Shown here piece after piece: positions 40,998 to 55,416 of a stretch of 64,000 nucleotides of DNA (position 1 is the first letter of the stretch; each line of letters begins with the position of its first letter). Below the pieces are notes generated by a model. That model was not told where the DNA came from. It did not search any database and saw only the letters and a list, made by a program, of their open reading frames with translations. The position numbers were made by a program, and so were the translations under genes. The DNA comes from Candidatus Sungiibacteriota bacterium (GTDB taxonomy: Bacteria; Patescibacteriota; Minisyncoccia; Sungbacterales; HO2-52-23). The stretch lies in contig CP066690.1 in assembly GCA_016432465.1 (NCBI GenBank), positions 398,823 to 462,822 of the forward strand, given 5' to 3'.

Positions 40998-41072
40998 TGG
41001 GGGATCTGCTAATTGGCAGGCGACTGGACTTTGGATCCAGAGATGAAGGTTCGAATCCTTCTCCCCCAGCCA
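40998..41072 (+). tRNA. tRNA-Gln(TTG)
   Basis: Acceptor tggggga/tccccca with discriminator g and CCA. The anticodon arm is ctgga-cttTGga-tccag and the T arm is gaaggttcgaatccttc. Confidence 0.7.
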
Positions 41073-41111
41073 AGTCTGACTTGGCCCAGCCAACCTCTGA
41101 CAAAATCCTGC

Positions 41112-41187
41112 TGCAGGGTCGGATAACTGGCAATCCAACGGACTGTTAATCCGTACGATGAGGGTTCGAATCCCTCCCCTGCAGCCA
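41112..41187 (+). tRNA. tRNA-Asn(GTT)
   Basis: Acceptor tgcaggg/ccctgca, anticodon arm acgga-ctGTTaa-tccgt, T arm gagggttcgaatccctc, CCA encoded. Confidence 0.75.
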
Positions 41188-41215
41188 ATCCTACTAATAG
41201 ATAGGGGATTCGAGT

Positions 41216-41291
41216 TGGGAGGTCGTCTAACTGGTAGGACGCCGGGCCCTGAACTCGGAAACCGAAGGTTCGAACCCTTCCCTCCCAACCA
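41216..41291 (+). tRNA. tRNA-Gln(CTG), with an atypical anticodon loop
   Basis: Acceptor tgggagg/cctccca, anticodon arm ccggg-ccCTGaa-ctcgg, T arm gaaggttcgaacccttc, CCA encoded. Confidence 0.55.
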
Positions 41292-41345
41292 AGCTAATCT
41301 TGGCCAACCAATTTGCTTTGCGTAACCTGCTTGACCATTATCTGT

Positions 41346-41419
41346 TGCGGGGAGAGCTGGCGCTCCCACCGGTCTCATAAGCCGAGTGGCGTGCGGTTCA
41401 ATTCCGCCCTCCGCAACCA
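41346..41419 (+). tRNA. tRNA, anticodon CAT (Met/Ile2), with a short D arm
   Basis: Acceptor tgcgggg/ctccgca, loop ctCATaa, T arm tgcggttcaattccgcc, CCA encoded. Confidence 0.6.
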
Positions 41420-41429
41420 AACTCCATGT

Positions 41430-41507
41430 CAGGGTGTCGCCCAGTCCGGCCAGGGCGCTTGGCTTGGGACCAAGAGGTCGTAGGTTCAAATCCTACCACC
41501 CTGACCA
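41430..41507 (+). tRNA. tRNA-Pro(TGG)
   Basis: Acceptor cagggtg/caccctg, D stem gccc/gggc, anticodon arm cttgg-ctTGGga-ccaag, T arm gtaggttcaaatcctac, CCA. Confidence 0.75.
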
Positions 41508-41540
41508 ACTCTTTTTTGATAAATCAGGACGCGTTTCAGT

Positions 41541-41616
41541 GGGGCCGTAGCTCAGTTGGGAGAGCGCCTGACCTGCAATCAGGGGGTCGTCGGTTCAAGT
41601 CCGACCGGTTCCACCA
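41541..41616 (+). tRNA. tRNA-Ala(TGC)
   Basis: Acceptor ggggccg/cggttcc with the G3:U70 pair, anticodon arm cctga-ccTGCaa-tcagg, T arm gtcggttcaagtccgac, CCA. Confidence 0.8.
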
Positions 41617-41643
41617 AAAACTTTTGGATGCAGTTCAAACGGG

Positions 41644-41720
41644 GCGGGTGTGGCCGAATGGCTAAGGCGCCAGCCTTCCAAGTTGGTTTTTTGTGGGTTC
41701 GAGTCCCACCACCCGCTCCA
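41644..41720 (+). tRNA. tRNA-Trp(CCA)
   Basis: Acceptor gcgggtg/cacccgc, anticodon arm ccagc-ctTCCAa-gttgg, T arm gtgggttcgagtcccac, CCA. Confidence 0.7.
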
Positions 41721-41863
41721 AATTTGATAAGAGGGACTCGAAGGGTATTTTAAAAAGCAAATGTTTTTGCTTTTTAAAAACCCAGGCTCCGAAGGAGCGC
41801 GGAGCCTCCGACAGAAGTCGGAGTGCGAAGCGCGAGTGAGGAGGAGTCCCACCACCCGCTCCA
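41721..41863 (+). repeat. tRNA-associated structured repeat element (copy 1) with a 20-nt duplication of the tRNA-Trp 3' end
   Basis: Core gggactcgaagggtatttt + hairpin aaaaagcaaatgtttttgcttttt + aaaaccc + ggctccgaaggagcgcggagcc + tccgacagaagtcggag + tgcgaagcgcgagtgaggagg. Then gagtcccaccacccgctcca, identical to 41701-41720. Confidence 0.7.
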
Positions 41864-41893
41864 AGACTTTTCTTCCCAGAGTCGAATATCGGT

Positions 41894-41968
41894 GGTGACC
41901 TTGGCCGAGAGACGAGGCATCGGACTGTGGCTCCGAGCACGTGGGTTTGAATCCCATAGGTCACCCCA
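41894..41968 (+). tRNA. tRNA-His(GTG) with encoded G-1
   Basis: g-gtgacct...aggtcac-c-cca; anticodon arm tcgga-ctGTGgc-tccga; T arm gtgggtttgaatcccat. Confidence 0.75.
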
Positions 41969-41980
41969 ACCCCTTCTGGT

Positions 41981-42056
41981 GTGGCTGTCGCCGAAATGGA
42001 CAGGCGCCAGATTGCAAATCTGGTCTATGCGGGTTCGAATCCCGTCAGCCACTCCA
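41981..42056 (+). tRNA. tRNA-Cys(GCA)
   Basis: Acceptor gtggctg/cagccac, anticodon arm ccaga-ttGCAaa-tctgg, T arm gcgggttcgaatcccgt, CCA. Confidence 0.75.
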
Positions 42057-42086
42057 AATCTGATCAACCAAACCACTTGAATCCGG

Positions 42087-42162
42087 GCCACGGTAGCTCA
42101 GACGGTAGAGCGCTGGTCTGAAGAACCGGAGGTCGCTAGCTCGAAACTAGCCCGTGGCACCA
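42087..42162 (+). tRNA. tRNA-Phe(GAA)
   Basis: Acceptor gccacgg/ccgtggc, D arm gctcagacggtagagc, anticodon arm ctggt-ctGAAga-accgg, T arm gctagctcgaaactagc, CCA. Confidence 0.8.
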
Positions 42163-42173
42163 AGATTCCCTGC

Positions 42174-42252
42174 GGTGGCGTAGCTTAGCCAGGCCTAAAG
42201 CGCCGGCCCGTCAAGCCGGAGGTCACGGGTTCGAATCCCGTCGCCATCGCCA
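42174..42252 (+). tRNA. tRNA-Asp(GTC)
   Basis: Acceptor ggtggcg/cgccatc, anticodon arm ccggc-ccGTCaa-gccgg, T arm acgggttcgaatcccgt, disc g, CCA. Confidence 0.7.
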
Positions 42253-42284
42253 AGTCTGACTTGGCCATCGCCAAATCGTTGAGT

Positions 42285-42359
42285 GGGCGGTTAGCTCAGC
42301 GGAAGAGCATCTCGTTTACACCGAGGGGGTCGTAGGTTCAAATCCTACACCGCCCACCA
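42285..42359 (+). tRNA. tRNA-Val(TAC)
   Basis: Acceptor gggcggt/accgccc, D arm gctcagcggaagagc, anticodon arm tctcg-ttTACac-cgagg, T arm gtaggttcaaatcctac, CCA. Confidence 0.75.
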
Positions 42360-42412
42360 AGTCTGACTTGGCCCGCCAAACAACACACTAAAATTAATAA
42401 CGGTAGGACAGC

Positions 42413-42499
42413 GGGTCGGAGCGGTGATGGGTGACACCAGCGGACTCCAAATCCGTCGACCAAATGGTCTTGGGGGTTCGAATCCTCCCCGGCCCGCCA
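42413..42499 (+). tRNA. Class II (long variable arm) tRNA with anticodon CCA; its body is near-identical to tRNA-Tyr
   Basis: Acceptor gggtcgg/ccggccc. Its D arm gagcggtgatgggtgacaccagc is identical to the Tyr tRNA at 42637. The anticodon arm is gcgga-ctCCAaa-tccgt. Long variable arm, T arm gggggttcgaatcctcc, CCA. Confidence 0.5.
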
Positions 42500-42535
42500 A
42501 GTCTGACTTGGCCCGCCAACCCAAAAAAATCCAGT

Positions 42536-42612
42536 GTGCCGTTAACTCAGCCCGGTAGAGTTCCAGACTCTTAATCTGGGAGCCAGAGGTTCGAATCCTC
42601 TACGGCACACCA
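42536..42612 (+). tRNA. tRNA-Lys(CTT)
   Basis: Acceptor gtgccgt/acggcac, anticodon arm ccaga-ctCTTaa-tctgg, T arm agaggttcgaatcctct, CCA. Confidence 0.75.
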
Positions 42613-42636
42613 AGTCTAAACCGAAATATCAGAGGT

Positions 42637-42724
42637 GGGTGGGAGCGGTGATGGGTGACACCAGCGGACTGTAACTCCGTGGGACCAAAAATCCTTGTAG
42701 GTTCAAATCCTACCCCACCCACCA
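42637..42724 (+). tRNA. tRNA-Tyr(GTA), class II
   Basis: Acceptor gggtggg/cccaccc, anticodon arm gcgga-ctGTAac-tccgt, long variable arm, T arm gtaggttcaaatcctac, CCA. Confidence 0.75.
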
Positions 42725-42748
42725 AACCCAAACAATAGAAACTCTTGT

Positions 42749-42831
42749 GCCGGGGTGGTGGAATTGGTAGACACTGCGGACTTAGGATCCGCTGGGCAAC
42801 CGTGCAGGTTCGAGTCCTGTCCCCGGCACCA
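42749..42831 (+). tRNA. tRNA-Leu(TAG), class II
   Basis: Acceptor gccgggg/ccccggc, anticodon arm gcgga-ctTAGga-tccgc, long variable arm, T arm gcaggttcgagtcctgt, CCA. Confidence 0.75.
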
Positions 42832-42842
42832 GATTTCCAAGT

Positions 42843-43070
42843 CGCGGGATGGCGGAACTTGGCAGACGCTCCAGATCGAGGGTCTGGTGGGAAACCGTGA
42901 GGGTTAAAATCCCGTCGCCATCGCCAAGTCTGACCAAACGGGATTTGAAGGGTATTTCAAAACATGAATGTCTTCATGTTTTGAAAACCCGGGTTCCGAA
43001 GGAGCGCGGAGCCTCCGACAGAAGTCGGAGTGCGAAGCGCGGGTGAGGAAAAATCCCTCTCCCGCGACCA
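42843..43070 (+). tRNA. tRNA-Leu(GAG)-like class II gene interrupted within its T loop by a 144-nt insertion
   Basis: The 5' part (42843-42913) has acceptor cgcggga, anticodon arm ccaga-tcGAGgg-tctgg and T stem/loop gagggttaaaatccc. The matching 3' part, aaaatccctc-tcccgcg-a-cca, is at 43050-43070. Confidence 0.5.
42914..43057 (+). repeat. tRNA-associated structured repeat element (copy 2) inserted in a tRNA T loop, carrying a tRNA-Asp-like 3' fragment
   Basis: gtcgccatcgccaagtctgacc resembles the tRNA-Asp 3' end plus the palindrome. Then the core ggatttgaagggtatttcaaaacatgaatgtcttcatgttttgaaaacccgggttccgaaggagcgcggagcctccgacagaagtcggagtgcgaagcgcgggtgagga; flanked by duplicated aaaatccc. Confidence 0.65.
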
Positions 43071-43097
43071 CACAAATAATTGTGACCAGCAGACAGA

Positions 43098-43175
43098 GCA
43101 CCCGTAGCTCAATCGGACTAGAGCGTCTGCCCTGTAAGCAGAGGGTTGTCAGTTCAAATCTGACCGGGTGCTCCA
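43098..43175 (+). tRNA. tRNA-Thr(TGT)
   Basis: Acceptor gcacccg/cgggtgc, anticodon arm tctgc-ccTGTaa-gcaga, T arm gtcagttcaaatctgac, CCA. Confidence 0.7.
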
Positions 43176-43219
43176 CCAAGCTCAGCTTGGTCCATCAATC
43201 CAGAGCTTGATATTCCGGT

Positions 43220-43306
43220 GGTGGGATGGCTGAGTCTGGCTTAAGGCAGCGGTTTGCTAAACCGTGGGCGAAAGCCTCGAGGGTTCAAATCCTTCTCCCA
43301 CCGCCA
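43220..43306 (+). tRNA. tRNA-Ser(GCT), class II
   Basis: Acceptor ggtggga/tcccacc, anticodon arm gcggt-ttGCTaa-accgt, long variable arm, T arm gagggttcaaatccttc, CCA. Confidence 0.7.
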
Positions 43307-43372
43307 AGTCTAACTTGGCTGGGGCCAAGTCTGATTTGATCACCAAAAACGAATTTCTTTTTGAAAATCAGG

Positions 43373-43448
43373 GCGCCCATAGCTCAGCGAATAGAGCGCC
43401 CCGCTACGGACGGGGAGGTCGCGGGTTTAAATCCTGCTGGGCGCTCCA
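43373..43448 (+). tRNA. tRNA-Arg(ACG)
   Basis: Acceptor gcgccca/tgggcgc, anticodon arm ccccg-ctACGga-cgggg, T arm gcgggtttaaatcctgc, CCA. Confidence 0.75.
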
Positions 43449-43458
43449 AATGCTCGGT

Positions 43459-43536
43459 GCCCGAGTAGCCCAACTGGCAGAGGCAGCGGACTTAAAATCC
43501 GAAAAGTGGTGGGTTCGAATCCCCCCTCGGGCACCA
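43459..43536 (+). tRNA. tRNA with anticodon TAA (Leu-like acceptor and T arm) but no long variable arm
   Basis: Acceptor gcccgag/ctcgggc with disc a and CCA; anticodon arm gcgga-ctTAAaa-tccga; variable region only about 5 nt; 78 nt total. Confidence 0.45.
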
Positions 43537-43549
43537 AATACTACAAAAT

Positions 43550-43680
43550 GGGATTCGAAGGGTATTTCAAAACATGAATGTCTTCATGTTTTGAAAACCC
43601 GGGCTCCGAAGGAGCGCGGAGCCTCCGACAGAAGTCGGAGTGCAAAGCGCGGGTGAGGAGGAATCCCCCCTCGGGCACCA
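43550..43680 (+). repeat. tRNA-associated structured repeat element (copy 3) with a 20-nt duplication of the upstream tRNA 3' end
   Basis: The core matches copy 2 almost exactly (ggattcgaagggtatttcaaaacatgaatgtcttcatgttttgaaaacccgggctccgaagg...gcgggtgaggagg). It is followed by gaatcccccctcgggcacca, which is identical to 43517-43536. Confidence 0.7.
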
Positions 43681-43702
43681 AAAGCGTCAAAGGAAACGCG
43701 GT

Positions 43703-43778
43703 GCAGGGATAGCTCAGTTGGTAGAGCACTGGACCGATAATCCAGAGGTCGATGGTTCGAACCCATCTCCCTGTACCA
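43703..43778 (+). tRNA. tRNA-Ile(GAT)
   Basis: Acceptor gcaggga/tccctgt, anticodon arm ctgga-ccGATaa-tccag, T arm gatggttcgaacccatc, CCA. Confidence 0.7.
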
Positions 43779-43817
43779 ACCAAAGTTCTTTTTAAAAACA
43801 ACCAAAATCTGACGTGG

Positions 43818-43896
43818 GGGCCCGTAGCTCAGCCAGGACCAGAGCAGGGGACTTCTAATCCTCTGGCCGGAGGTTCAAATCCTCCCGGGCCTACCA
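43818..43896 (+). tRNA. tRNA-Arg(TCT)
   Basis: Acceptor gggcccg/cgggcct, anticodon arm gggga-ctTCTaa-tcctc, T arm ggaggttcaaatcctcc, CCA. Confidence 0.7.
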
Positions 43897-44491: not shown

Positions 44492-45718
44492 TCAGTTTTT
44501 GGATTCAAATAGTTCTATCTCTCTGGGTTGTTGAGCACCAAACTCTTTAATAACCCCGCGCGCTGATTCTAATACTGCAGCTTTTATTCTAACGGCATCG
44601 GTTGTGACATTGGTTAGGCCGGAATCTCGCGGCCAGAGAATACCGATATTTACGCCTTTTTGCTTTTGTATAAACTCAAGCGATTTCCTAATTTGTTCTT
44701 TGATTCGTAAGAATTTTTCTACTGTTCCTAATGAAGCTGCTGGGATGACTTTGGAAGCTCCTTCGATAAGCTCCGATACGAGATATTCGCCGGGGGTCGT
44801 TTCAAATGCGTCCATTCGGTCAAAGGGTGTATTTGGTAAAATTAATATATCTGTCGGTTGAAATTGTTCAATCACTTTTTCAACCGGCATAGGATCAAAG
44901 GCTCCGTCAACATATCGTCCGTCATTCACCTCAACCGCTTTTCGATAAGCAATCGGGGCAGCCATAGAGGCATGAAACGGGCTTATCATATCGGGTGTAG
45001 CTGTTTTTACATCTATGAATTTCGATTTGAATGTCTTGGGATCAGTAACACCGACATAGAGTTCTTGCGGCGAATCCATAATCGCTTTTTGGTCAAGAGT
45101 TTTTGGACCGTGGCGCATTGCCTTGGCGATAAAATCGACGTTCATAATCTGATGTAAGCGCCTGAAATCAATAAAATCTTTTGTGGTGCACTCTTCATAA
45201 AAAAGAGAGGTTCCAATTTGTGCTTGCTCTTTCCCCGCTGAAAAATAGGCGGCTGTGCCGGCTCCGGCAGAAATACCCACTACAACATCAAATGCTCTAC
45301 CCAAACCAACTTCGTGCAATCCCAAGGCCTGTCCAGCGCTATAAGGACCCTTCATGCCTCCTCCTAGTATTAGGAGAACAAACTTTCGTGGCCTTTCTTC
45401 TTTACCGTCCCGTCTTTGGATAAGATGATCTAAAACCGACCTTAGATTTCTCTCCCAGGCTTGAAACTCTTCGGTTCTCCTCCGTTCAAAATCAGCATTA
45501 TCTCGCAGGGCCTCCTCGTGTGCAAAGTCCATTGCCGTCATTTGCGCTTTCCATCCGATTCCGCGTCTCCAGTCCATAACTTTTTGCAGCAGCCCCCGTT
45601 CATTAAACTCCTTTGCCATTTTCTCAAATCGCTGTTGATGAAATTCAAATTCTGCCGGAATCTCCTCGGCGGAGCCAGCTGTCTCCCTTTTTATATTATT
45701 TGGTGGGCCTTCTTTCAT
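44492..45718 (-). CDS. Patatin-like phospholipase family protein
   Basis: Oxyanion motif GGGMKG and a GxSxG motif (GISAGA), plus a downstream DGA/DGG-type region. Confidence 0.75.
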   Translation of the reverse strand: MKEGPPNNIKRETAGSAEEIPAEFEFHQQRFEKMAKEFNERGLLQKVMDWRRGIGWKAQMTAMDFAHEEALRDNADFERRRTEEFQAWERNLRSVLDHLIQRRDGKEERPRKFVLLILGGGMKGPYSAGQALGLHEVGLGRAFDVVVGISAGAGTAAYFSAGKEQAQIGTSLFYEECTTKDFIDFRRLHQIMNVDFIAKAMRHGPKTLDQKAIMDSPQELYVGVTDPKTFKSKFIDVKTATPDMISPFHASMAAPIAYRKAVEVNDGRYVDGAFDPMPVEKVIEQFQPTDILILPNTPFDRMDAFETTPGEYLVSELIEGASKVIPAASLGTVEKFLRIKEQIRKSLEFIQKQKGVNIGILWPRDSGLTNVTTDAVRIKAAVLESARGVIKEFGAQQPREIELFESKN

Positions 45719-45973
45719 AAAAAATGAAATAACTTGGCAAAATCTGGTACAAGTTGATCTATGGGATATTCTAAACTTTGCGCGAAATTTCTTTGAGCGA
45801 AACTGACCGCCTCCGCTTCCTGCCTGCGCCGAGGCTTCGGCGGGCAGGCGCTCCGGCGGGACGCTCCGCCTTCGTTGAAACTTCGGCGGACAGGTCGGGT
45901 GCGGCGGAATTCCTCCCTCACCTCGCCCTTGCGCCGCGCCCTCGCGAGAGGCCAGAATTTTTTCGCCGCCAAA

Positions 45974-47593
45974 TCAGATAATTTCAGCTTCTTTCAAAAC
46001 CTGTCTGACGCTTTTATTATAGTTATGAATTTTCTCCAAAGCTAGTCTCGCTTGTTTCTTACTGATAAATCCTACTGTAACTTCGCGCGCCAGACGCGTA
46101 GCGTCTGGATGAAAACCAAGCATTCGTCTTGCTTTATTTTCTGCCGCTTTTGCAAATAGACAAGAGTTTGCATTTGATTCAATCAACCTTTCGCCTCGTG
46201 GAATTTTCCACCCTAATTTTCTTAAAATCTTTCCCGTATCTTTAATTTTTCTTTGCAAAAGAAACGGCAGATGAACGATATAGACAGGCGGCTTGTTTTT
46301 GAATGGCTGTAATTTCCGAATCGCCGAAAAAACAAACTTTTTCGACTCACTATCTTGGCTTAATCCGGCCCACTCATTAATTCCGAGAATAATTACATTC
46401 ACCCCATGTTTTTGGGCTTCCCCGTAGTAGGCACGAACAATAAGCCGCCTGCATAGTTGGCAAGTTCTCACAAACGGGATTGTATGCTGGCATTTGATTG
46501 AATAGTGTCTTCTACCTTCCACATACCATTTTCTGAATTTCTCTTTCAGTTCTAAAGAATCATGCTCGGCATATAAATCTGCCGTTTTTTTAAAACAAGC
46601 ACGATCAACTGGACGCATATACTTTCTCGCATCTATTTTTTCATAATCAACACTCAATCTCTTTGCAACTTGTTTTGCTCTTGGGAAAATGTGCTTAGGG
46701 TAATAATGAGTGTCTAAGGAAAAAGCGAGAGGGGTAAAGCCCATGCTCTTAGTTTCATAGAGGGTTGCCGTGCTGTCCTTTCCGCCAGATATACCGACCA
46801 TTGCGTCATACTTACCCTTACCTGAATTTTTGAGCGAAAGTAAAAATTTCAACTCCTTTAGTAATGGAGTTTTGCTAAAATTTTTCACATATCGTTCGCA
46901 TACATCGCATAAACCAGATTTCCCGATAGTGTTGGATAAATTAGTGCTGGTATTCACACATTTTTTACACTCAACTACCTCGACTAACGCTCTAATTTGA
47001 GCAACAATTTCTTTTTGTTTAGTCACCGCTGTATTGAAAGATAGGTGAGCAATTTTTTCAACCTTGTTCGTTGAAAAAAGCCGCTCCTCAATTTGCCGCT
47101 CTTTTTCGGCATCCTTTTGTGAAAAACTTTCTCGTTTTGAAACACGCGCTGAAAGATGTTTATCGGGAGTTTTCAAATAGACAACAAGGTATCCATTCTT
47201 TTTGAAAAAAGTTGAGTTTCGGTAACCTCTAATTCCTGCAATAACAATAAATTTTCCAGGAAATCTTTCTTGATGGATATTGATTATTGTTTTCGCAATA
47301 ACCGCCGAGGAATAGCGGTTTTTGAGATAACTGAAAAAATTACGCGCCTTTTCGCGAGAAATCTTCTTATCAATTTTTGTCCCAAAAATTTTATTGATTT
47401 GTTGGATAAAACCATTTTCGTTTTCTGGCAATCTTTCTTTAATGGAAGCGGCAGGGTTGATAACTGTATCAAACGCTTCAATGTGTTTTGCTCTAGGAAA
47501 AGAAATCAAGAATAATTTGGCTATGGTCGTCTTGCCGCTTCCGGGGGCTCCGAAAACCGCTATTCCTTTGTATTTCATTTTTTGTCTTGTCAT
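45974..47593 (-). CDS. Fusion protein: N-terminal P-loop kinase-like domain, zinc ribbon, and C-terminal PP-loop ATPase of the TtcA/TtuA tRNA-thiolase type
   Basis: Walker A GAPGSGKTT, a CxxC...CxxC ribbon, the PP-loop GISGGKDS and the TtcA-like Cys motif RTCQLCRRL. Confidence 0.6.
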   Translation of the reverse strand: MTRQKMKYKGIAVFGAPGSGKTTIAKLFLISFPRAKHIEAFDTVINPAASIKERLPENENGFIQQINKIFGTKIDKKISREKARNFFSYLKNRYSSAVIAKTIINIHQERFPGKFIVIAGIRGYRNSTFFKKNGYLVVYLKTPDKHLSARVSKRESFSQKDAEKERQIEERLFSTNKVEKIAHLSFNTAVTKQKEIVAQIRALVEVVECKKCVNTSTNLSNTIGKSGLCDVCERYVKNFSKTPLLKELKFLLSLKNSGKGKYDAMVGISGGKDSTATLYETKSMGFTPLAFSLDTHYYPKHIFPRAKQVAKRLSVDYEKIDARKYMRPVDRACFKKTADLYAEHDSLELKEKFRKWYVEGRRHYSIKCQHTIPFVRTCQLCRRLIVRAYYGEAQKHGVNVIILGINEWAGLSQDSESKKFVFSAIRKLQPFKNKPPVYIVHLPFLLQRKIKDTGKILRKLGWKIPRGERLIESNANSCLFAKAAENKARRMLGFHPDATRLAREVTVGFISKKQARLALEKIHNYNKSVRQVLKEAEII

Positions 47594-48015
47594 AAAAAAT
47601 CACGTTGCAGAATTATTTTTGCTTTTCGTAACGCCTTTCCACGATGGCTTACTTTATTCTTTTCTTCCATCGTCATTTGAGCATTTGTTTTGTTAAGTTC
47701 CTCGTTGTAAAAAATTGGGTCATATCCGAAGCCGTTGTTGCCTATCGGTTCTAACGCGATTCTCCCTTCATAAATACCCTCACACGTTCTTACTTTGTCA
47801 TTGCTAGGATCATAAATTGCTATAGTCGCCCTAAAACGCGCTGTGCGTTTTTCCTCTGATACATTTTGAAGTTCGCTCAGCAATTTCCGATATCTATCCT
47901 CGTCTGTGCCCGGTGCGTACCTTGCGGTATATACGCCAGGCCTTCCATTCAGTATGTCAACTTCTAGGCCAGCATCTTCCGCAAGCGTTAGCAGAGGCGG
48001 ATCTGCCTTAGGCAC
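47590..48015 (-). CDS. RdgB/Ham1-family non-canonical NTP pyrophosphatase, N-terminally truncated
   Basis: AEDAGLEVDILNGRPGVYTARYA...FGYDPIF...SHRGKAL match the Ham1 middle and C-terminal motifs. Only 141 aa, with an in-frame stop 16 codons upstream of the GTG start. Confidence 0.6.
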   Translation of the reverse strand: MPKADPPLLTLAEDAGLEVDILNGRPGVYTARYAPGTDEDRYRKLLSELQNVSEEKRTARFRATIAIYDPSNDKVRTCEGIYEGRIALEPIGNNGFGYDPIFYNEELNKTNAQMTMEEKNKVSHRGKALRKAKIILQRDFL

Positions 48016-48126
48016 GACAAGTTTTTCTTTGGCGGCTATGCAGCCTCTTGGGTTAGTACTTCTTTAGTCTCGAGTTCCGGATAAGTTAAAATTATGAAAC
48101 CTTCGCCTTCTCCAAAAAATTCGACG

Positions 48127-48684
48127 TTAAATCCCATGTCTCCAAAAAAACTTTTCTATATCTTCTTTTGTCGCATCAGTAATTTCTTCGGCCGTAGAAA
48201 CTGGAACTCGACTATTTATCCAATCAATGATTATTTTGCCACCCGGAGCTATGACCCTTTTGTATTCTTCTACCATTTCGCGAGTAAGTTTACCGCCAGT
48301 TTTTTTAGTTATGTCTTCATCTGCGGCGTGGTATAACGCGCCTAATCGTTCGTATAAAACCTTAAAGAAGGCGGACTTAAATGGTAAATGATATGCATCA
48401 CTAGCAACTATATGAAAATTTAAATTCTTGTATTCATCTTGCGGCTTCTGTACGACAGATTTTCTATCTTTTGTTAGAGCAAAATCTGTCAAGAAAATTT
48501 CTGGATTATGAGATTTTTTTAGCGCACCAATAGCTTCGTCAAGATTTTTTAGAAATGCCCAGTCTTTCTTACCCGTGCTCACAGAAGACGCAAGAATTGA
48601 AATTTTTTCCTTTTGGATCATATCCAAAACTCCAGCCGATTCAAAAACCCTTAGCATTTCTTTGGCAAACTCCTCGGGACTCAA
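48127..48684 (-). CDS. SAM-dependent methyltransferase-like protein
   Basis: Class I MTase-like motifs FHIVASDAYHLPF and VIAPGGKIIID. Confidence 0.45.
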   Translation of the reverse strand: MSPEEFAKEMLRVFESAGVLDMIQKEKISILASSVSTGKKDWAFLKNLDEAIGALKKSHNPEIFLTDFALTKDRKSVVQKPQDEYKNLNFHIVASDAYHLPFKSAFFKVLYERLGALYHAADEDITKKTGGKLTREMVEEYKRVIAPGGKIIIDWINSRVPVSTAEEITDATKEDIEKFFWRHGI

Positions 48685-48916
48685 ATCATGTCTTTCGTCG
48701 GTCTCTGTGTATGGATATTCTCCGTAGTACTCTTGCCAAGATTCTTTGTAATTTTTTTCGCTCGTATGATTAAAGATTTTCTTTTCCCAAAATTAAAATA
48801 CAGTTCGAGCCGACCCCGAACAAATTTGCTTCACAAATTTAACGGGGCAAGTATTTTTACAGGTTCTTTGGCGGTTTTTATCAGCGCGGCGGAGCCGCGA
48901 TTTCGGAATTTCGCGA

Positions 48917-48987
48917 TGGACCCAGGGAGAATCGAACTCCCGCTTGCGCAATGCGAATGCGCCGTTATGCCACTTAACTATGGGCCC
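48917..48987 (-). tRNA. tRNA-Ala(CGC)
   Basis: On the minus strand: acceptor gggccca/tgggtcc with G3:U70, anticodon arm gcgca-ttCGCat-tgcgc, T arm gggagttcgattctccc. No CCA. Confidence 0.7.
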
Positions 48988-48989
48988 TA

Positions 48990-49844
48990 TCACAAATTTA
49001 ATTTATTCTCTAGCGCGATCTTTGGGTAGAGATCAGTAGGATAAATTTCAACCAATTTAATGCTTTGCTTCTTGCAGAAGTTTCTTTTTCTTCTAACCTC
49101 TCTGTCGTATCGCGGACTGTCTTTTAAAAGACCAAAATATTCAACGAAGGTATTTCCTATTACCCAATCCGCGCGGAAATTCGTATCAGGATATCTGGTT
49201 CCCTTTAAATGCACTATGCCCCGTTTAGTTAACCAATTATCAATTATTGCTTCAGAGATAGAATCACATAAGTGCCCGTCAGATGCTTTTGCATTCATTC
49301 TTTTATACATGCGGTGACCGTGAGACCGATGGGGTTTTAAACCAGCAGCTAGAATTGTATCATTCCAAGAACCAAAATGTTTCCTTCCAGCCTCTGAAAT
49401 ATTTCTTAACTCTCTCCTCACTGGTACTCTCTTAAGTTCTTTGTGGGCAAGGCGGATCAGTTTCAAGACTTCTTTAGCTGTAAATCGGGTCCTTGCCAAA
49501 TAACCGCATTTCCGTGAACAATATTTGCCGTCTCGTTTAAACGTATTTCCGCAGGATAAACATGCCGTAGGGAGTCTGATCCTCTTTGGAAACCTTCGAT
49601 TATTTACCTGAGCCGCACAGGATCGAGAACAATAGTTATGTGCTGAAATATCATTTGGCTGCCGAGTAAATTCCGTCATGCAGTTTCCACAATTTACTAT
49701 CCTTGCCTTTGTCTTATACTGAAATTCGCAACTTCGAGAGCAATAAAAATTATGCCCAAATTTTAAATTCTCGTTTATTCTACCCCGACTTCTATAAATC
49801 GGGTTAGAGCACTTATTACAAGAAACTTTATATAGCTTTTCCAT
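48990..49844 (-). CDS. Multi-zinc-ribbon protein with C-terminal DUF559/Vsr-like endonuclease-fold region
   Basis: At least five CxxC/CxxxC pairs in the N-terminal 130 aa. The C-terminus RADWVIGNTFVEYFG resembles PD-(D/E)xK Vsr/DUF559 proteins. Confidence 0.4.
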   Translation of the reverse strand: MEKLYKVSCNKCSNPIYRSRGRINENLKFGHNFYCSRSCEFQYKTKARIVNCGNCMTEFTRQPNDISAHNYCSRSCAAQVNNRRFPKRIRLPTACLSCGNTFKRDGKYCSRKCGYLARTRFTAKEVLKLIRLAHKELKRVPVRRELRNISEAGRKHFGSWNDTILAAGLKPHRSHGHRMYKRMNAKASDGHLCDSISEAIIDNWLTKRGIVHLKGTRYPDTNFRADWVIGNTFVEYFGLLKDSPRYDREVRRKRNFCKKQSIKLVEIYPTDLYPKIALENKLNL

Positions 49845-49985
49845 ACCTACAAATATACTCGGGATACCCGGATTTGCACCGGGGCTACTGACCCCCGAAG
49901 CCAGCGTGCTACTGTTACACCATATCCCGAAAATTTTGGCGGGGGGCGATGCATGTTGCCGCTACACTAATCCCCGACAACTAAG

Positions 49986-51166: not shown

Positions 51167-53047
51167 TTACACGGGTTTAGGATAAATAATGGGCTCTATC
51201 TTGGCGCGGGTTGAAATAATGAGCCTGCGAATCTCGCGTACAAAACCAGCACCGGTACTTTTGGGTTCTGCCTCTGCCTCATCAAGTAATTGGGCAAGTT
51301 TATAAAAGGGGCTGTTTTCCACATTCTCGGCCAATTCCAGTTCCCGGGTAGACCAAATATCGTCTGGTTCCTGCAAACCAAACTTAGTAAAAATGTCTTT
51401 TGACTTATCAGAAAAAATGTGCCAAATATCAGTCAGCTTTATACGCACTTCTTGTTTTTGTCCGACATTCAATGGGTCATTTCTTTTTAATTCCTGACAT
51501 GATTTTAATGCCGCGCCCAAAAGATATGCGCTCTTTAAGAGCCGATCAAGTCCGGTAAGACTTTGCAATTGAAATGTGCGAATCTCAATTCCCAGTGTGG
51601 CCCCAAGTTCAAGTTCATAACCCAGGCGTTCCTTAACCCCCCCCCGCCCATTAATAGTCCAGCCCGGATACTTGGAAAGATAGGGCCTAAGCAGACGTTT
51701 ACCCCTTGTGCTCCAAGCGCTGGCCTCAAGAACACGAGCAAGAAGGTAGGCGTTTCCCCCGCCTTCCACTTCCACTCCGCCAATAGTAAGGTGCATAGCA
51801 TGTCGCTGGTCTTCACGGTTTATAAGGTCCATGGCAATCAACGCCTGAACTTCTTTGGAGAGCGTAAAATAATTTCTTACGGGCTTGTGCGCAAACTCCC
51901 AAAATCCATCGCCTCCTCTGGGAACTCCCAATTTTTCAACCCCATGATACGGTTGCCGCTTCTCCTCAATAATTTGTTCTCGCTTTCTCATCCACTCCTC
52001 TTGTTCGTACCATTCCCACCCAGAAAATCCCTGCGGCTTTCTTGCGAGTTCTGGTGGAAGCACAGAATGAGCACGAATCTCAATTTCAATTCCCAGTGTC
52101 GGCGCATAGGGTGACGGATTTTCCTCGCGATATTCCAGCCAGTGACGTCGCAAAAATTTCGTATCATCTTTTTCCGGCTCCTCCTTTATTTTTTTTTCTT
52201 TTCGTGCCTCGTGGCGAAGACGCCTTACTACTTCTAGTCTGCTCTCTACTTCCTGAATATTGCCCTCGGCGTAGAAGTCGCTAATAACACGATCTGTAGC
52301 TTCCGGTGCGTATTCTGGCCCTGCGTACAGTGATCTTGGATTTTCTATAAAGAAGTTTTCTAGCTCGCGTTCAAGGCGTCTCGGGTTAAGCTCCTGCCAG
52401 TAATATTCAATGGTCGCTGGGCCAAAAGAAAATGGTTCCTGGTTATTTTCTTGCAAAAATTCATTTATTTTTGAGATGGCGACAACAAACTTGTCAATAT
52501 CCCGGGCTCGCATCCTTATTGCCATAAGGACCCTAAAAATATCTTGAAGGTCATAGATGTACCAAAAATCTGACTCTGGGAAATAGGGAGATTCTGATTT
52601 CTCTTTCCTGACAAAAGTGGTCAAATCGTCAATTGTCTCCTCTGTCCCAATTCTCTGCAGAATTTCAAAGATGGCTATCTTTTTTGACCTATCGGGTTCC
52701 CGGACTATTTTGTCCTTTGTTAAAACTTTGCTTATTCTTTTCGCCTCGTTAGGGGTCGCGCAGAAGAAGAGCCAGTTTAACTCACAATACAGCCGGCGGC
52801 TCGCGACCGGATCTTCAGAAACCAGATCCCTTTCAATCATTTCCAATATGTATTGGGCCGCCCTTCTTCCCTCAACGCGCAACCGGCGTCTTAACTCAAT
52901 AACACCGCCATCCCAAAAGATTTTAAGGGATTTATCACCTATATCCTCTATTAGTTCTTGAAGTCTGGTTTTGTCCTCCGGTGTAATAACAATCTCCCCA
53001 GACTCTTCGTCTTGGGTTTCCGGTTGTAGTTGTTCACGAATGGGCAT
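51167..53047 (-). CDS. Large hypothetical protein with repeated LGIEIE/LGIEIR motifs
   Basis: 626-aa ORF; TLGIEIEIRAH and ATLGIEIRTFQ are reminiscent of GxExE Mg-binding strands. Confidence 0.4.
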   Translation of the reverse strand: MPIREQLQPETQDEESGEIVITPEDKTRLQELIEDIGDKSLKIFWDGGVIELRRRLRVEGRRAAQYILEMIERDLVSEDPVASRRLYCELNWLFFCATPNEAKRISKVLTKDKIVREPDRSKKIAIFEILQRIGTEETIDDLTTFVRKEKSESPYFPESDFWYIYDLQDIFRVLMAIRMRARDIDKFVVAISKINEFLQENNQEPFSFGPATIEYYWQELNPRRLERELENFFIENPRSLYAGPEYAPEATDRVISDFYAEGNIQEVESRLEVVRRLRHEARKEKKIKEEPEKDDTKFLRRHWLEYREENPSPYAPTLGIEIEIRAHSVLPPELARKPQGFSGWEWYEQEEWMRKREQIIEEKRQPYHGVEKLGVPRGGDGFWEFAHKPVRNYFTLSKEVQALIAMDLINREDQRHAMHLTIGGVEVEGGGNAYLLARVLEASAWSTRGKRLLRPYLSKYPGWTINGRGGVKERLGYELELGATLGIEIRTFQLQSLTGLDRLLKSAYLLGAALKSCQELKRNDPLNVGQKQEVRIKLTDIWHIFSDKSKDIFTKFGLQEPDDIWSTRELELAENVENSPFYKLAQLLDEAEAEPKSTGAGFVREIRRLIISTRAKIEPIIYPKPV

Positions 53048-54645: not shown

Positions 54646-54978
54646 AAGGCTGTACTTGACAAACTTATATTTTAAGAGTATAATGAATAGTAAGGCTTTG
54701 GCTCTTTTTTTTGTTCTAATTTGTTCTAGTCTGCTCTAATTTATTTTAATCTGCTTTTCCTGTTCTTCCTGACCGCACCTCCAGGGGGTGCGGGGTACTC
54801 CTCCGCCTACTAAAAGAAGGTGGGGGATAAAACCACTCCATTTCTATTGTCTGGTTCCCGAAAGGGAACAATGGCAGTGGCCTGTCTTGCCGCACGGTGC
54901 GGTAAGACAACCCCGCAACCCGGTCCGATTCTAATCGGACCACAGCGTCCCGACCCAGTCGGGACAGGAGGTGCGCCA

Positions 54979-55278
54979 ATGACCAAGACAGACGCTCCGC
55001 AGCTCGAAGCCGACCTGCGGTACCAAGCCACCATCCACTATGTGGATGAGGCTGGGTACCCGCATGTCGCCCGCGGTAGACGGCTGGCAGAGCCGTTTAT
55101 CGTAGGACAGGACGAACACGGTCGACACGTCGCTATCCCCATGGAGGCGATACGGTCGATCGACGTCGACGATGAACTCGTGGTTGGAGGGCTCTGGGAG
55201 CCGCTCCGGCGCGAGACCACCATCGTCGCCCACTGGCGCAGCGCGCCGTGGGGTGAGCTGGTGCGGTTGACACCGTAG
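54979..55278 (+). CDS. Hypothetical ORF inside a GC-rich island
   Basis: ATG at 54979 (MTKTDAPQLEAD...). GC-rich third positions unlike the rest of the window. Confidence 0.3.
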   Translation: MTKTDAPQLEADLRYQATIHYVDEAGYPHVARGRRLAEPFIVGQDEHGRHVAIPMEAIRSIDVDDELVVGGLWEPLRRETTIVAHWRSAPWGELVRLTP

Positions 55279-55416
55279 CCAGTTCACACGCGCAACCCAA
55301 CCCCCATGGCTCCACGCCGTGGGGGTTACGCTTTATCAATTATCGTTGCTATTACTGCGGTCGTGTTGATTGATTCCAGACAAAAAATGAAGTAAAATTT
55401 GAAAATGCGCCTATAG

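Follow-up and report, generated by a model that had tools for sequence, protein, structure and literature searches.

A rearrangement scar beside an intact kinase–PP-loop fusion gene, a probable sulfur insertase of ultra-small bacteria and archaea

Do three tightly packed genes in the genome of Candidatus Sungiibacteriota, a bacterium that belongs to the candidate phyla radiation (CPR), work together as an operon, or has chance placed them side by side? The window considered here is a 64-kb stretch of that genome, and all coordinates are positions within it. A first-pass annotation of this DNA had described a methyltransferase-like gene, a truncated Ham1 gene and a gene fusing a kinase to a TtcA-like PP-loop protein, and had proposed that they form an operon, either a tRNA or nucleotide thiolation/modification module or part of a defence island. 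The open reading frames (ORFs), their minus-strand orientation, coordinates and tight packing, and the four-nucleotide overlap (ATGA) between the fusion gene and the Ham1 ORF, are all present as described there. We conclude nevertheless that the locus is a rearrangement scar beside one intact gene and not an operon. The intact gene, which encodes a protein of 539 residues, belongs to an uncharacterised conserved family that CPR bacteria share with DPANN archaea, and this family is probably a kinase-fused, iron–sulfur (Fe-S)-dependent sulfur insertase confined to ultra-small bacteria and archaea. The three genes and the lesions in one of them are as follows.

45974..47593, minus strand: fusion gene, intact ORF of 539 residues; kinase, zinc ribbon and three-cysteine PP-loop ATP pyrophosphatase
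47590..48015, minus strand: Ham1/RdgB remnant, 5'-truncated, ORF of 141 residues (Pfam match, PDB alignments)
48036..48765, minus strand: decayed methyltransferase-like gene, here called gene C; surviving ORF 48127-48684 of 185 residues (alignment with homologs)
48763-48765, minus strand: former start codon of gene C, now ACG (alignment with intact homologs)
48144-48150, minus strand: frameshift site of gene C, a T7 run (comparison with intact homolog P0300)
48036-48140, minus strand: out-of-frame C-terminal tail of gene C (frame translations)

Decay of the genes next to the fusion gene

Gene C belongs to a rare family whose members are 232–266 residues long, with 14 matches among the 5.8 billion sequences searched. 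An intact and near-identical homolog, P0300, has 242 residues, begins MSEKSYKESWQ and ends FFADMGFNIEFFGEGEGFIILTYPE. Comparison with P0300 and with the family alignment (A2) shows that the start codon in the window has changed from ATG to ACG. A second lesion, an extra T in a run of T residues, produces a +1 frameshift, so that the conserved tail, GFNVEFFGEGEGFIILTYPE, is no longer read in frame. The exact damaged sequences of gene C and of the Ham1 ORF recur on 9–11 contigs from independent sources (11 contigs for the 141-residue Ham1 sequence), so the lesions in both genes are real, and errors of assembly are ruled out as their origin.

The designation of gene C as methyltransferase-like proves to be weak. 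Its match to the Methyltransf_11 model lies below the cutoff (20.0 against 21.2 bits, E = 1e-3), it has no match in NCBIfam, and motif I reads LASSVSTG throughout the family and not GxGxG; gene C thus lacks both the above-cutoff model and the motif of a class I S-adenosylmethionine methyltransferase. On this sequence evidence the family can be called methyltransferase-like only marginally. An intact copy from the family, at another locus (L011), lies in an unrelated context.

The Ham1 ORF had rightly been recognised as truncated. It matches the Pfam profile (E = 7e-45) at positions 62–184 of 186 only, and homologous chains in the PDB align to it only from their residue 61–85 onward; about 60 N-terminal residues of the family are missing, and the complete Ham1/RdgB fold of about 185–200 residues is not attained. 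A metagenomic relative (L133), in which the fusion protein is 81.5% identical, has an intact Ham1 of 200 residues at the same position, directly upstream of the fusion gene and itself preceded by an XRE regulator. The window Ham1 aligns to residues ~60–200 of this protein, and that alignment shows the truncation to be a true loss of 5' sequence compared with the intact ortholog. The 111 nucleotides upstream of the ORF cannot encode the missing part, and an N-terminus in another frame was rejected: translation of 48013-48140 in all three frames showed that gene C's frameshifted tail fills this space. The lost third of an RdgB/ITPA protein should hold the first strand and the phosphate- and magnesium-binding residues, and because of this it is very unlikely that the 141-residue product is an active nucleoside triphosphate (NTP) pyrophosphatase.

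Neighbourhoods of the fusion gene were surveyed at 47 non-redundant loci, collected by individual look-ups, a genome scan and a metagenome scan with the motif VRTCQLCRR; matches were filtered with hidden Markov models of the family. The SGGKDS pattern used for the genome scan was too generic and returned only two true loci. Twelve loci were inspected individually, neighbours were clustered, and a Pfam census was taken of the 125 genes lying no more than two positions from the fusion gene. Neither the clustering nor the census revealed a conserved partner across the 47 loci, and the 12 individually inspected loci have differing neighbours. The commonest neighbour, a small XRE helix-turn-helix (HTH) gene, is found at five loci, and Ham1, NUDIX, inosine monophosphate (IMP) cyclohydrolase domain, GNAT and HicA genes are found at two loci each. 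A Ham1 neighbour is absent from 45 of the 47; the gene adjoins the fusion gene in just one other lineage (L133), and in L115 a Ham1-like gene is found at a distance of three genes. Relatives with 84–87% identity have the XRE gene in Ham1's place, and nowhere else among the 47 loci does a member of the gene C family adjoin the fusion gene.

We conclude that the juxtaposition of Ham1 with the fusion gene is lineage-specific and is now decaying in this genome. The proposal that the methyltransferase-like gene, Ham1 and the fusion gene form an operon for sanitising and modifying nucleotides or tRNA can point to their tight same-strand packing, to the overlap, and to the Ham1 genes of L133 and L115, but two of the three genes are decayed here and the three do not form a functional module; taken together with the survey, this makes the proposal very improbable. 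The first-pass annotation had itself named a neighbourhood that is not conserved among the signs of a coincidental grouping, and at the 47 loci the neighbourhood is not conserved. The locus carries a wider caution, in that tight packing and four-nucleotide overlaps can persist in gene remnants and are no proof of an operon.

The window lacks the XRE HTH gene, which in close Sungbacteria relatives shares four nucleotides with the fusion gene. It lies at 297-515 in L010, 144-398 in L094, 1144-1398 in L140 and 1840-2094 in L133, immediately upstream of the fusion gene or, in L133, of Ham1, with the same four-nucleotide overlap. At a further locus (L009) only the C-terminal half of the gene is left, next to a tRNA.

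Distribution and architecture of the fusion family

The 539-residue protein is identical (100% match) to an NCBI entry labelled 'AAA family ATPase' of Candidatus Sungiibacteriota. Its family comprises about 300 clusters at 90% identity (296 matches), with 47–88% identity over the full length, and nearly all members have 525–556 residues. The bacterial members belong to Parcubacteria (Sung-, Harrison-, Yanofsky- and Vogelbacteria and Paceibacterota), and the archaeal members to DPANN lineages (Woesearchaeota, Micrarchaeaceae and Nanoarchaeia), with about 50% identity kept across the divide between bacteria and archaea. In a Micrarchaeaceae locus (L004) the neighbours, NAC and TruD, are themselves archaeal. 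Database labels for the family are AAA ATPase or assorted kinases, and we found no earlier description of it in the literature on PP-loop proteins, TtuA or tRNA modification in Patescibacteria, CPR and DPANN. The fusion had been called unusual; it is indeed unannotated, but it is not rare, being a widespread and conserved family. A large part of microbial diversity consists of CPR and DPANN organisms, and for much of the gene content that they conserve no function has been assigned.

Domain searches bore out the proposal that the protein joins a P-loop kinase and a zinc ribbon to a PP-loop protein. A very basic P-loop kinase domain is followed by a CxxC...GxCxxC zinc ribbon and then by a PP-loop ATP pyrophosphatase domain; the AAA_18 match spans residues 11–165, and the QueC, NAD_synthase and WbuX PP-loop models match from about residue 209. 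AlphaFold2 gave a confident two-domain model, with a predicted local distance difference test (pLDDT) score of 89.5 and a predicted template-modelling (pTM) score of 0.79. The principal features of the protein are listed below.

46979..47593, minus strand: kinase-like domain, residues 1–205 (AAA_18/SKI matches; Walker A GAPGSGKTT)
46898..46969, minus strand: zinc ribbon C209-x2-C212...G227-x-C229-x2-C232, invariant in 35 homologs
46772..46789, minus strand: PP-loop SGGKDS, residues 269–274, invariant; ATP alpha-beta pyrophosphatase signature
46451..46462, minus strand: C378-Q-L-C381(-R-R), putative [4Fe-4S] cysteines 1 and 2, invariant
46160..46162, minus strand: C478 in ESNxNSC, putative Fe-S cysteine 3, invariant

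Further invariant residues include G15, G20 and K21 of the Walker A motif and E39, R80, R122, R150 and E169 in the kinase domain, and R376-x-C378-x-x-C381-R382, N406-E407-W408, H441-x-P-F and C478 in the PP-loop domain, together with a C-terminal motif, LGFHPDxTRLxREVTxGF. An exhaustive profile search with the C-terminal domain against 1.84 billion representative proteins yielded about 36 full-domain clusters at 50% identity, some of them fused to the kinase and others stand-alone proteins of about 320–364 residues; the CxxC is invariant in the stand-alone members too.

The idea that the kinase and PP-loop parts also occur as adjacent split genes was examined and rejected. Two kinase-only ORFs were found on long contigs with no PP-loop neighbour, and one of these is itself a truncation. 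Among other architectures, one protein of 878 residues (P0150) has an extra N-terminal APH/protein-kinase-like domain (TCAD9, PF19974) in front of the kinase and PP-loop domains. A further series of profile matches (P0206-P0282) consists of zinc-ribbon PP-loop domains of NASAT/CtaC-like type inside proteins of 1,200–5,400 residues which, judged by their size, may be megasynthases of the non-ribosomal peptide synthetase (NRPS)/polyketide synthase type.

Candidate chemistry and substrate

The fusion protein carries the SGGxDS signature of the PP-loop (AANH) superfamily. Its SGGKDS aligns with the PP-loops of NAD synthetase, LarE, TtuA and NASAT, and the AlphaFold2 model matches structures of NASAT, TtuA, LarE, NAD synthetase and GMP synthetase. 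In a Foldseek search with the C-terminal domain the best match was 8wex, a NASAT from Legionella (E = 5e-10 over 377 columns), followed by TtuA. The best NCBIfam model was WbuX (TIGR03573), with 64.3 bits, far under the cutoff of 203.2 (E = 1e-17), and with coverage of only positions 4–145 of 344. The tetracysteine CXXCXn[GN]XCXXC, a zinc-binding signature of NASAT (PMC10607449), stands directly before the PP-loop. Likeness to NASAT (WbuX, WbpG and PseA) therefore includes the zinc ribbon in the same place, and it extends to the C-terminal helical region, which reads '...VRxGxxTREEA' in NASAT and 'REVTVGFITKxQA' in the fusion protein.

The fusion protein nevertheless fails as a NASAT proper on score, on its cysteines and on genomic context. 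No full-length match reaches the cutoff, and all three positions of the C378/C381/C478 triad lack a cysteine in 8wex. NASAT genes of the wbuXYZ type are associated with lipopolysaccharide (LPS)/O-antigen genes and with HisH/HisF-like ammonia suppliers; neither LPS/O-antigen nor HisH/HisF genes were found in the 12 inspected loci or among the 25 Pfam families listed in the census. The product predicted here would moreover carry sulfur and not nitrogen. The protein fails equally as a TtcA or TtuA. With these enzymes and NcsA it shares the PP-loop, a C-x-x-C-R-R-type motif with a third cysteine, an N-terminal zinc finger (in the case of TtuA) and structural matches at E ~1e-5 to 1e-6, and the three conserved cysteines of the TtcA/TtuA/Ncs6 type are present at the level of sequence. 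The TtcA model, however, matches only weakly over residues 356–404 (23 bits against a cutoff of 272), the C-terminal second zinc finger of TtuA is lacking, with no C-terminal CxxC...CxxC in the family alignment, and no TtuB-like carrier was found nearby. TtcA, TtuA and NcsA for their part have no kinase domain.

A closer counterpart appeared below the family in the profile search, after a sharp drop in score. This is a group of proteins of 330–370 residues (alignment A4) that match WbuX over its full length with 132–167 bits, again under the cutoff, and that combine a zinc ribbon and a PP-loop with an invariant CxxC and, distal to it, an 'SSNC' cysteine. Comparison of the PP-loop domain of the fusion family (alignment A3) with A4 by hhalign gave a probability of 100% (E = 1e-42 over 303 columns), and both the CxxC and the third cysteine fell into register. 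The published account of the thioamide synthetase CtaC describes a zinc site, a PP-loop with D77 and S78, and Fe-S cysteines C154, C157 and C284, and reports from experiment that thioamidation depends on the Fe-S cluster, requiring ATP, sulfide and an intact cluster (PMC6772006). The corresponding positions in A4 are SGGxDS at 62–67 and C143, C146 and C271, and because the spacings match we read A4 as a CtaC-like group, an assignment made from motif spacing and a figure legend.

The fusion family has in common with CtaC the zinc site, the SGGKDS PP-loop, and the CxxC and distal cysteine at the same spacing, and its domain is homologous over the full length to A4, the group read as CtaC-like. 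The chemistry would be alike, with adenylation followed by attack of sulfide and replacement of oxygen by sulfur. CtaC differs in acting on carrier-protein-bound peptides in NRPS-type clusters, in the closthioamide pathway, whereas the fusion gene has no thiotemplate neighbours: carrier-protein and NRPS genes were absent from the individually inspected loci and from the Pfam families listed in the census. The fusion family is further set apart from CtaC by the kinase domain, by extreme basicity, by restriction to CPR and DPANN organisms, and by a conserved insert of about 45 residues (328–375, EGRxHYSxKCxH) before the CxxC. We read it as a sister of A4, a NASAT-fold enzyme with an Fe-S triad of the sort that is usual in non-redox sulfur insertases; as such it would extend the CtaC/NASAT branch of PP-loop proteins past natural-product and LPS pathways. 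The CxxC, which the first-pass annotation had called TtcA-type, is on sequence comparison homologous to the Fe-S motif of TtcA, TtuA, LarE and CtaC (CQLC, residues 378–381), and it lines up with the CxxC of the NAD_synthase-domain protein 8cnz, which has a related entry, 8cp3, listed as LarE. This homology is the reason why thiolation stands as the best guess at the chemistry, although the three-gene module to which thiolation was first attached does not. At a single locus (L005) the fusion gene directly follows nifS, nifU, ferredoxin and ferredoxin reductase genes, a context that fits an Fe-S enzyme.

The kinase domain has its best Foldseek match in the PDB with 3lw7, an AdkA-like protein with bound AMP (template-modelling score TMt 0.73); dephospho-CoA kinase, CMP kinase and adenylate kinases come next. 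Fold and Walker A motif are shared with the AdkA-like/UPF0200 proteins (SSO1041, 3lw7), archaeal CMP kinase and dephospho-CoA kinase, as are the acidic E39 at the end of strand 2 and the LID-type arginines. We take E39 to be equivalent to the acidic residue that ends strand 2 in shikimate, dephospho-CoA and polynucleotide kinases, and the C-terminal pattern '...vvYLk...R...R...E...NT' resembles that of archaeal Cmk. The domain differs from these kinases in a unique acceptor-binding region (residues ~40–110) and in its fusion to a PP-loop domain, and it reaches the cutoff of no family model. From its conserved residues it looks catalytically competent.

Both domains are strikingly basic. Median net charge is +16 for the kinase domain and +34 for the PP-loop domain, with a median pI of ~9.9 in both, compared with +3.5 and pI 8.3 for A4 and with -5 and pI 6.2 for fifteen other ORFs of the window. 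A net charge of about +50 for the whole protein argues that the substrate is most likely polyanionic, and we favour RNA or tRNA over a free nucleotide.

Our preferred reading, to which we assign a probability of about 60%, is that the locus consists of a scar and an intact fusion enzyme that acts on a polyanionic substrate, whether RNA/tRNA or a nucleotide, in an ATP- and Fe-S-dependent exchange of oxygen for sulfur. In this mechanism the PP-loop domain would adenylate the carbonyl oxygen of the substrate, converting ATP to AMP and pyrophosphate, and a putative [4Fe-4S] cluster on C378, C381 and C478 would bind sulfide at its free iron. The sulfide would then attack the adenylated carbon and displace AMP to leave a thiocarbonyl, an exchange like that of TtcA, TtuA, NcsA, LarE and CtaC, while the fused kinase domain would phosphorylate the same substrate or anchor its nucleotide moiety. 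The family is therefore a concrete candidate for an unknown sulfur-insertion step in the RNA or nucleotide metabolism of ultra-small symbionts.

A number of observations weigh against this reading, some of them bearing on the chemistry and others on the substrate. With regard to the chemistry, the closest solved structure (8wex) is an amidotransferase, the CtaC-like reading of A4 comes from motif spacing and a figure legend, the three cysteines could hold a structural metal in place of an Fe-S cluster, and no sulfur carrier or desulfurase recurs beside the fusion gene in the 47-locus census. In a rival reading the PP-loop domain would be an amidotransferase like NASAT, TilS, QueC or GMP synthase, replacing an adenylated carbonyl oxygen by nitrogen and using its extra cysteines for a structural metal; in its favour are the match to 8wex, WbuX as the best model, the common zinc-ribbon signature and the lack of a recurrent sulfur donor nearby. 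The partial and low-scoring WbuX match speaks against it, as does the triad, which is absent from 8wex and invariant in both the fusion family and A4 and whose cysteines have counterparts in the CxxC of 8cnz and in the TtcA model; the HisH/HisF-type partner that would supply ammonia was, as noted, not seen. We regard an amidotransferase as improbable.

With regard to the substrate, the fusion protein has no detectable RNA-binding domain (THUMP, PUA and the like), and its kinase domain has small-molecule kinases as structural neighbours, with no polynucleotide kinase among the 50 Foldseek matches listed, which favours a nucleotide over RNA. The stand-alone members of the family are less basic, with a net charge of about +6, and genes of nucleotide metabolism (Ham1, NUDIX, IMP cyclohydrolase, ribonucleotide reductase and HD) recur weakly nearby. 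On these four grounds a free nucleotide is kept as the main rival to the RNA substrate that we favour. The enzyme would then act on a free nucleotide or nucleoside in salvage metabolism, the kinase making or consuming a nucleoside monophosphate and the PP-loop/Fe-S domain thiolating the base to give, for example, a 2-thiopyrimidine, 4-thiopyrimidine or 6-thiopurine nucleotide, and this modification step would be specific to CPR and DPANN organisms. The AMP bound in 3lw7 and the nature of the other kinase matches agree with this, and the fusion gene is adjoined by Ham1 in the window and in L133, by NUDIX in L001, by an IMP cyclohydrolase domain that overlaps it by eight nucleotides in L008 (and is also found in L134), by class II ribonucleotide reductase in L003, and by HD/HD_4 genes in L009 and L007. 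To our knowledge, CPR and DPANN organisms lack de novo nucleotide synthesis. Each of these associations is nevertheless confined to one or two of the 47 loci, a net charge near +50 is hard to reconcile with a small-molecule substrate, and we know of no thiolated free nucleotide that serves as a housekeeping metabolite. A substrate of this kind is accordingly doubtful, if well worth keeping in view.

A more specific form of the RNA alternative can be advanced only tentatively. It holds that the fusion protein is a bifunctional RNA enzyme specific to CPR and DPANN organisms, exchanged between bacteria and archaea, which both phosphorylates and thiolates a nucleoside of tRNA or rRNA. If true, it would represent a thionucleoside route that replaces ThiI, TtcA, MnmA or NcsA in reduced genomes, or else an uncatalogued modification.

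Flanking genes and other features of the window

The patatin gene downstream of the fusion gene, and the tRNA-Ala gene and the gene for a protein of 284 residues upstream, are present as first annotated. With two smaller features, they are as follows.

44492..45718, minus strand: patatin-like phospholipase gene (PF01734, E = 1e-13)
48803-48821: terminator-like hairpin after tRNA-Ala(cgc) (terminator scan)
48917-48987, minus strand: tRNA-Ala(cgc) (ARAGORN, Rfam)
48990..49844, minus strand: 284-residue protein with repeated CSRxC-type cysteine motifs and HNH_repeat (PF18780, E = 4e-8)
49858-49930: tRNA-Pro(cgg) (ARAGORN, Rfam)

An anti-phage defence island here would be made up of a patatin effector, an endonuclease-like protein and a nucleotide-modifying ATPase. 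The patatin does match phospholipase effector models of the cyclic-oligonucleotide-based anti-phage signalling system (CBASS) type, though weakly (E = 1e-5), and the C-terminus of the 284-residue protein, whose sequence pattern reads as endonuclease-like, matches the PADLOC candidate model PDC-S69 (E = 1.4e-9). When eight proteins of the window were searched against PADLOC-DB 2.0, however, none of the three core proteins gave a significant match: the best for the fusion protein had E = 6e-4 over 50 residues and the best for gene C E = 9e-3, and Ham1 had none. The surroundings are housekeeping genes, among them an array of 24 tRNA genes, a CCA-adding enzyme and a class-V aminotransferase, and the fusion gene stands in unrelated housekeeping contexts at the 47 loci. 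We conclude that the 284-residue protein is an independent one of the homing-endonuclease-associated type, and consider a defence island extremely unlikely.

The fusion gene is parted from the patatin gene by a GC-rich spacer of 255 nucleotides (45720-45973) that contains repeated hairpin units of the GCTTCGGCGGG type. The 85-residue ORF called within it is probably not a real gene, and L140 has a comparable Arg/Glu-rich 'ORF' in the vicinity of its fusion gene. A hidden RNA in the spacer was also considered and rejected, the Rfam matches in the window being tRNAs only.

Elsewhere in the window, an ORF of 626 residues (51167-53047, minus strand) has no match in Pfam, NCBIfam or PADLOC. A GC-rich island at 54775-55375 (60–67% GC, compared with ~45% around it) lies between the gene for the CCA-adding enzyme and a tRNA-Arg gene and may be foreign DNA; it holds an ORF of 152 residues (54820-55278, plus strand) with high-GC codon usage.

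The tRNA array packs its 24 genes into 2.9 kb on the plus strand (40998-43896). It contains three copies of a 170-nucleotide repeat (41694-41863, 42901-43070 and 43511-43680), and a 3'-trailer hairpin, CCAAGTCTGACTTGGCC, follows at least five of the tRNAs. The gene reported as 'tRNA-Trp(cca)' at 42413-42499 is 87 nucleotides long with a long extra arm, and scores above the Rfam threshold for tRNA-Sec (48 against 47 bits). Over its first 44 nucleotides it shows 91% identity to tRNA-Tyr(gta), its neighbour at 42637-42724, and we conclude that it is a Tyr-like class-II body with a CCA anticodon.

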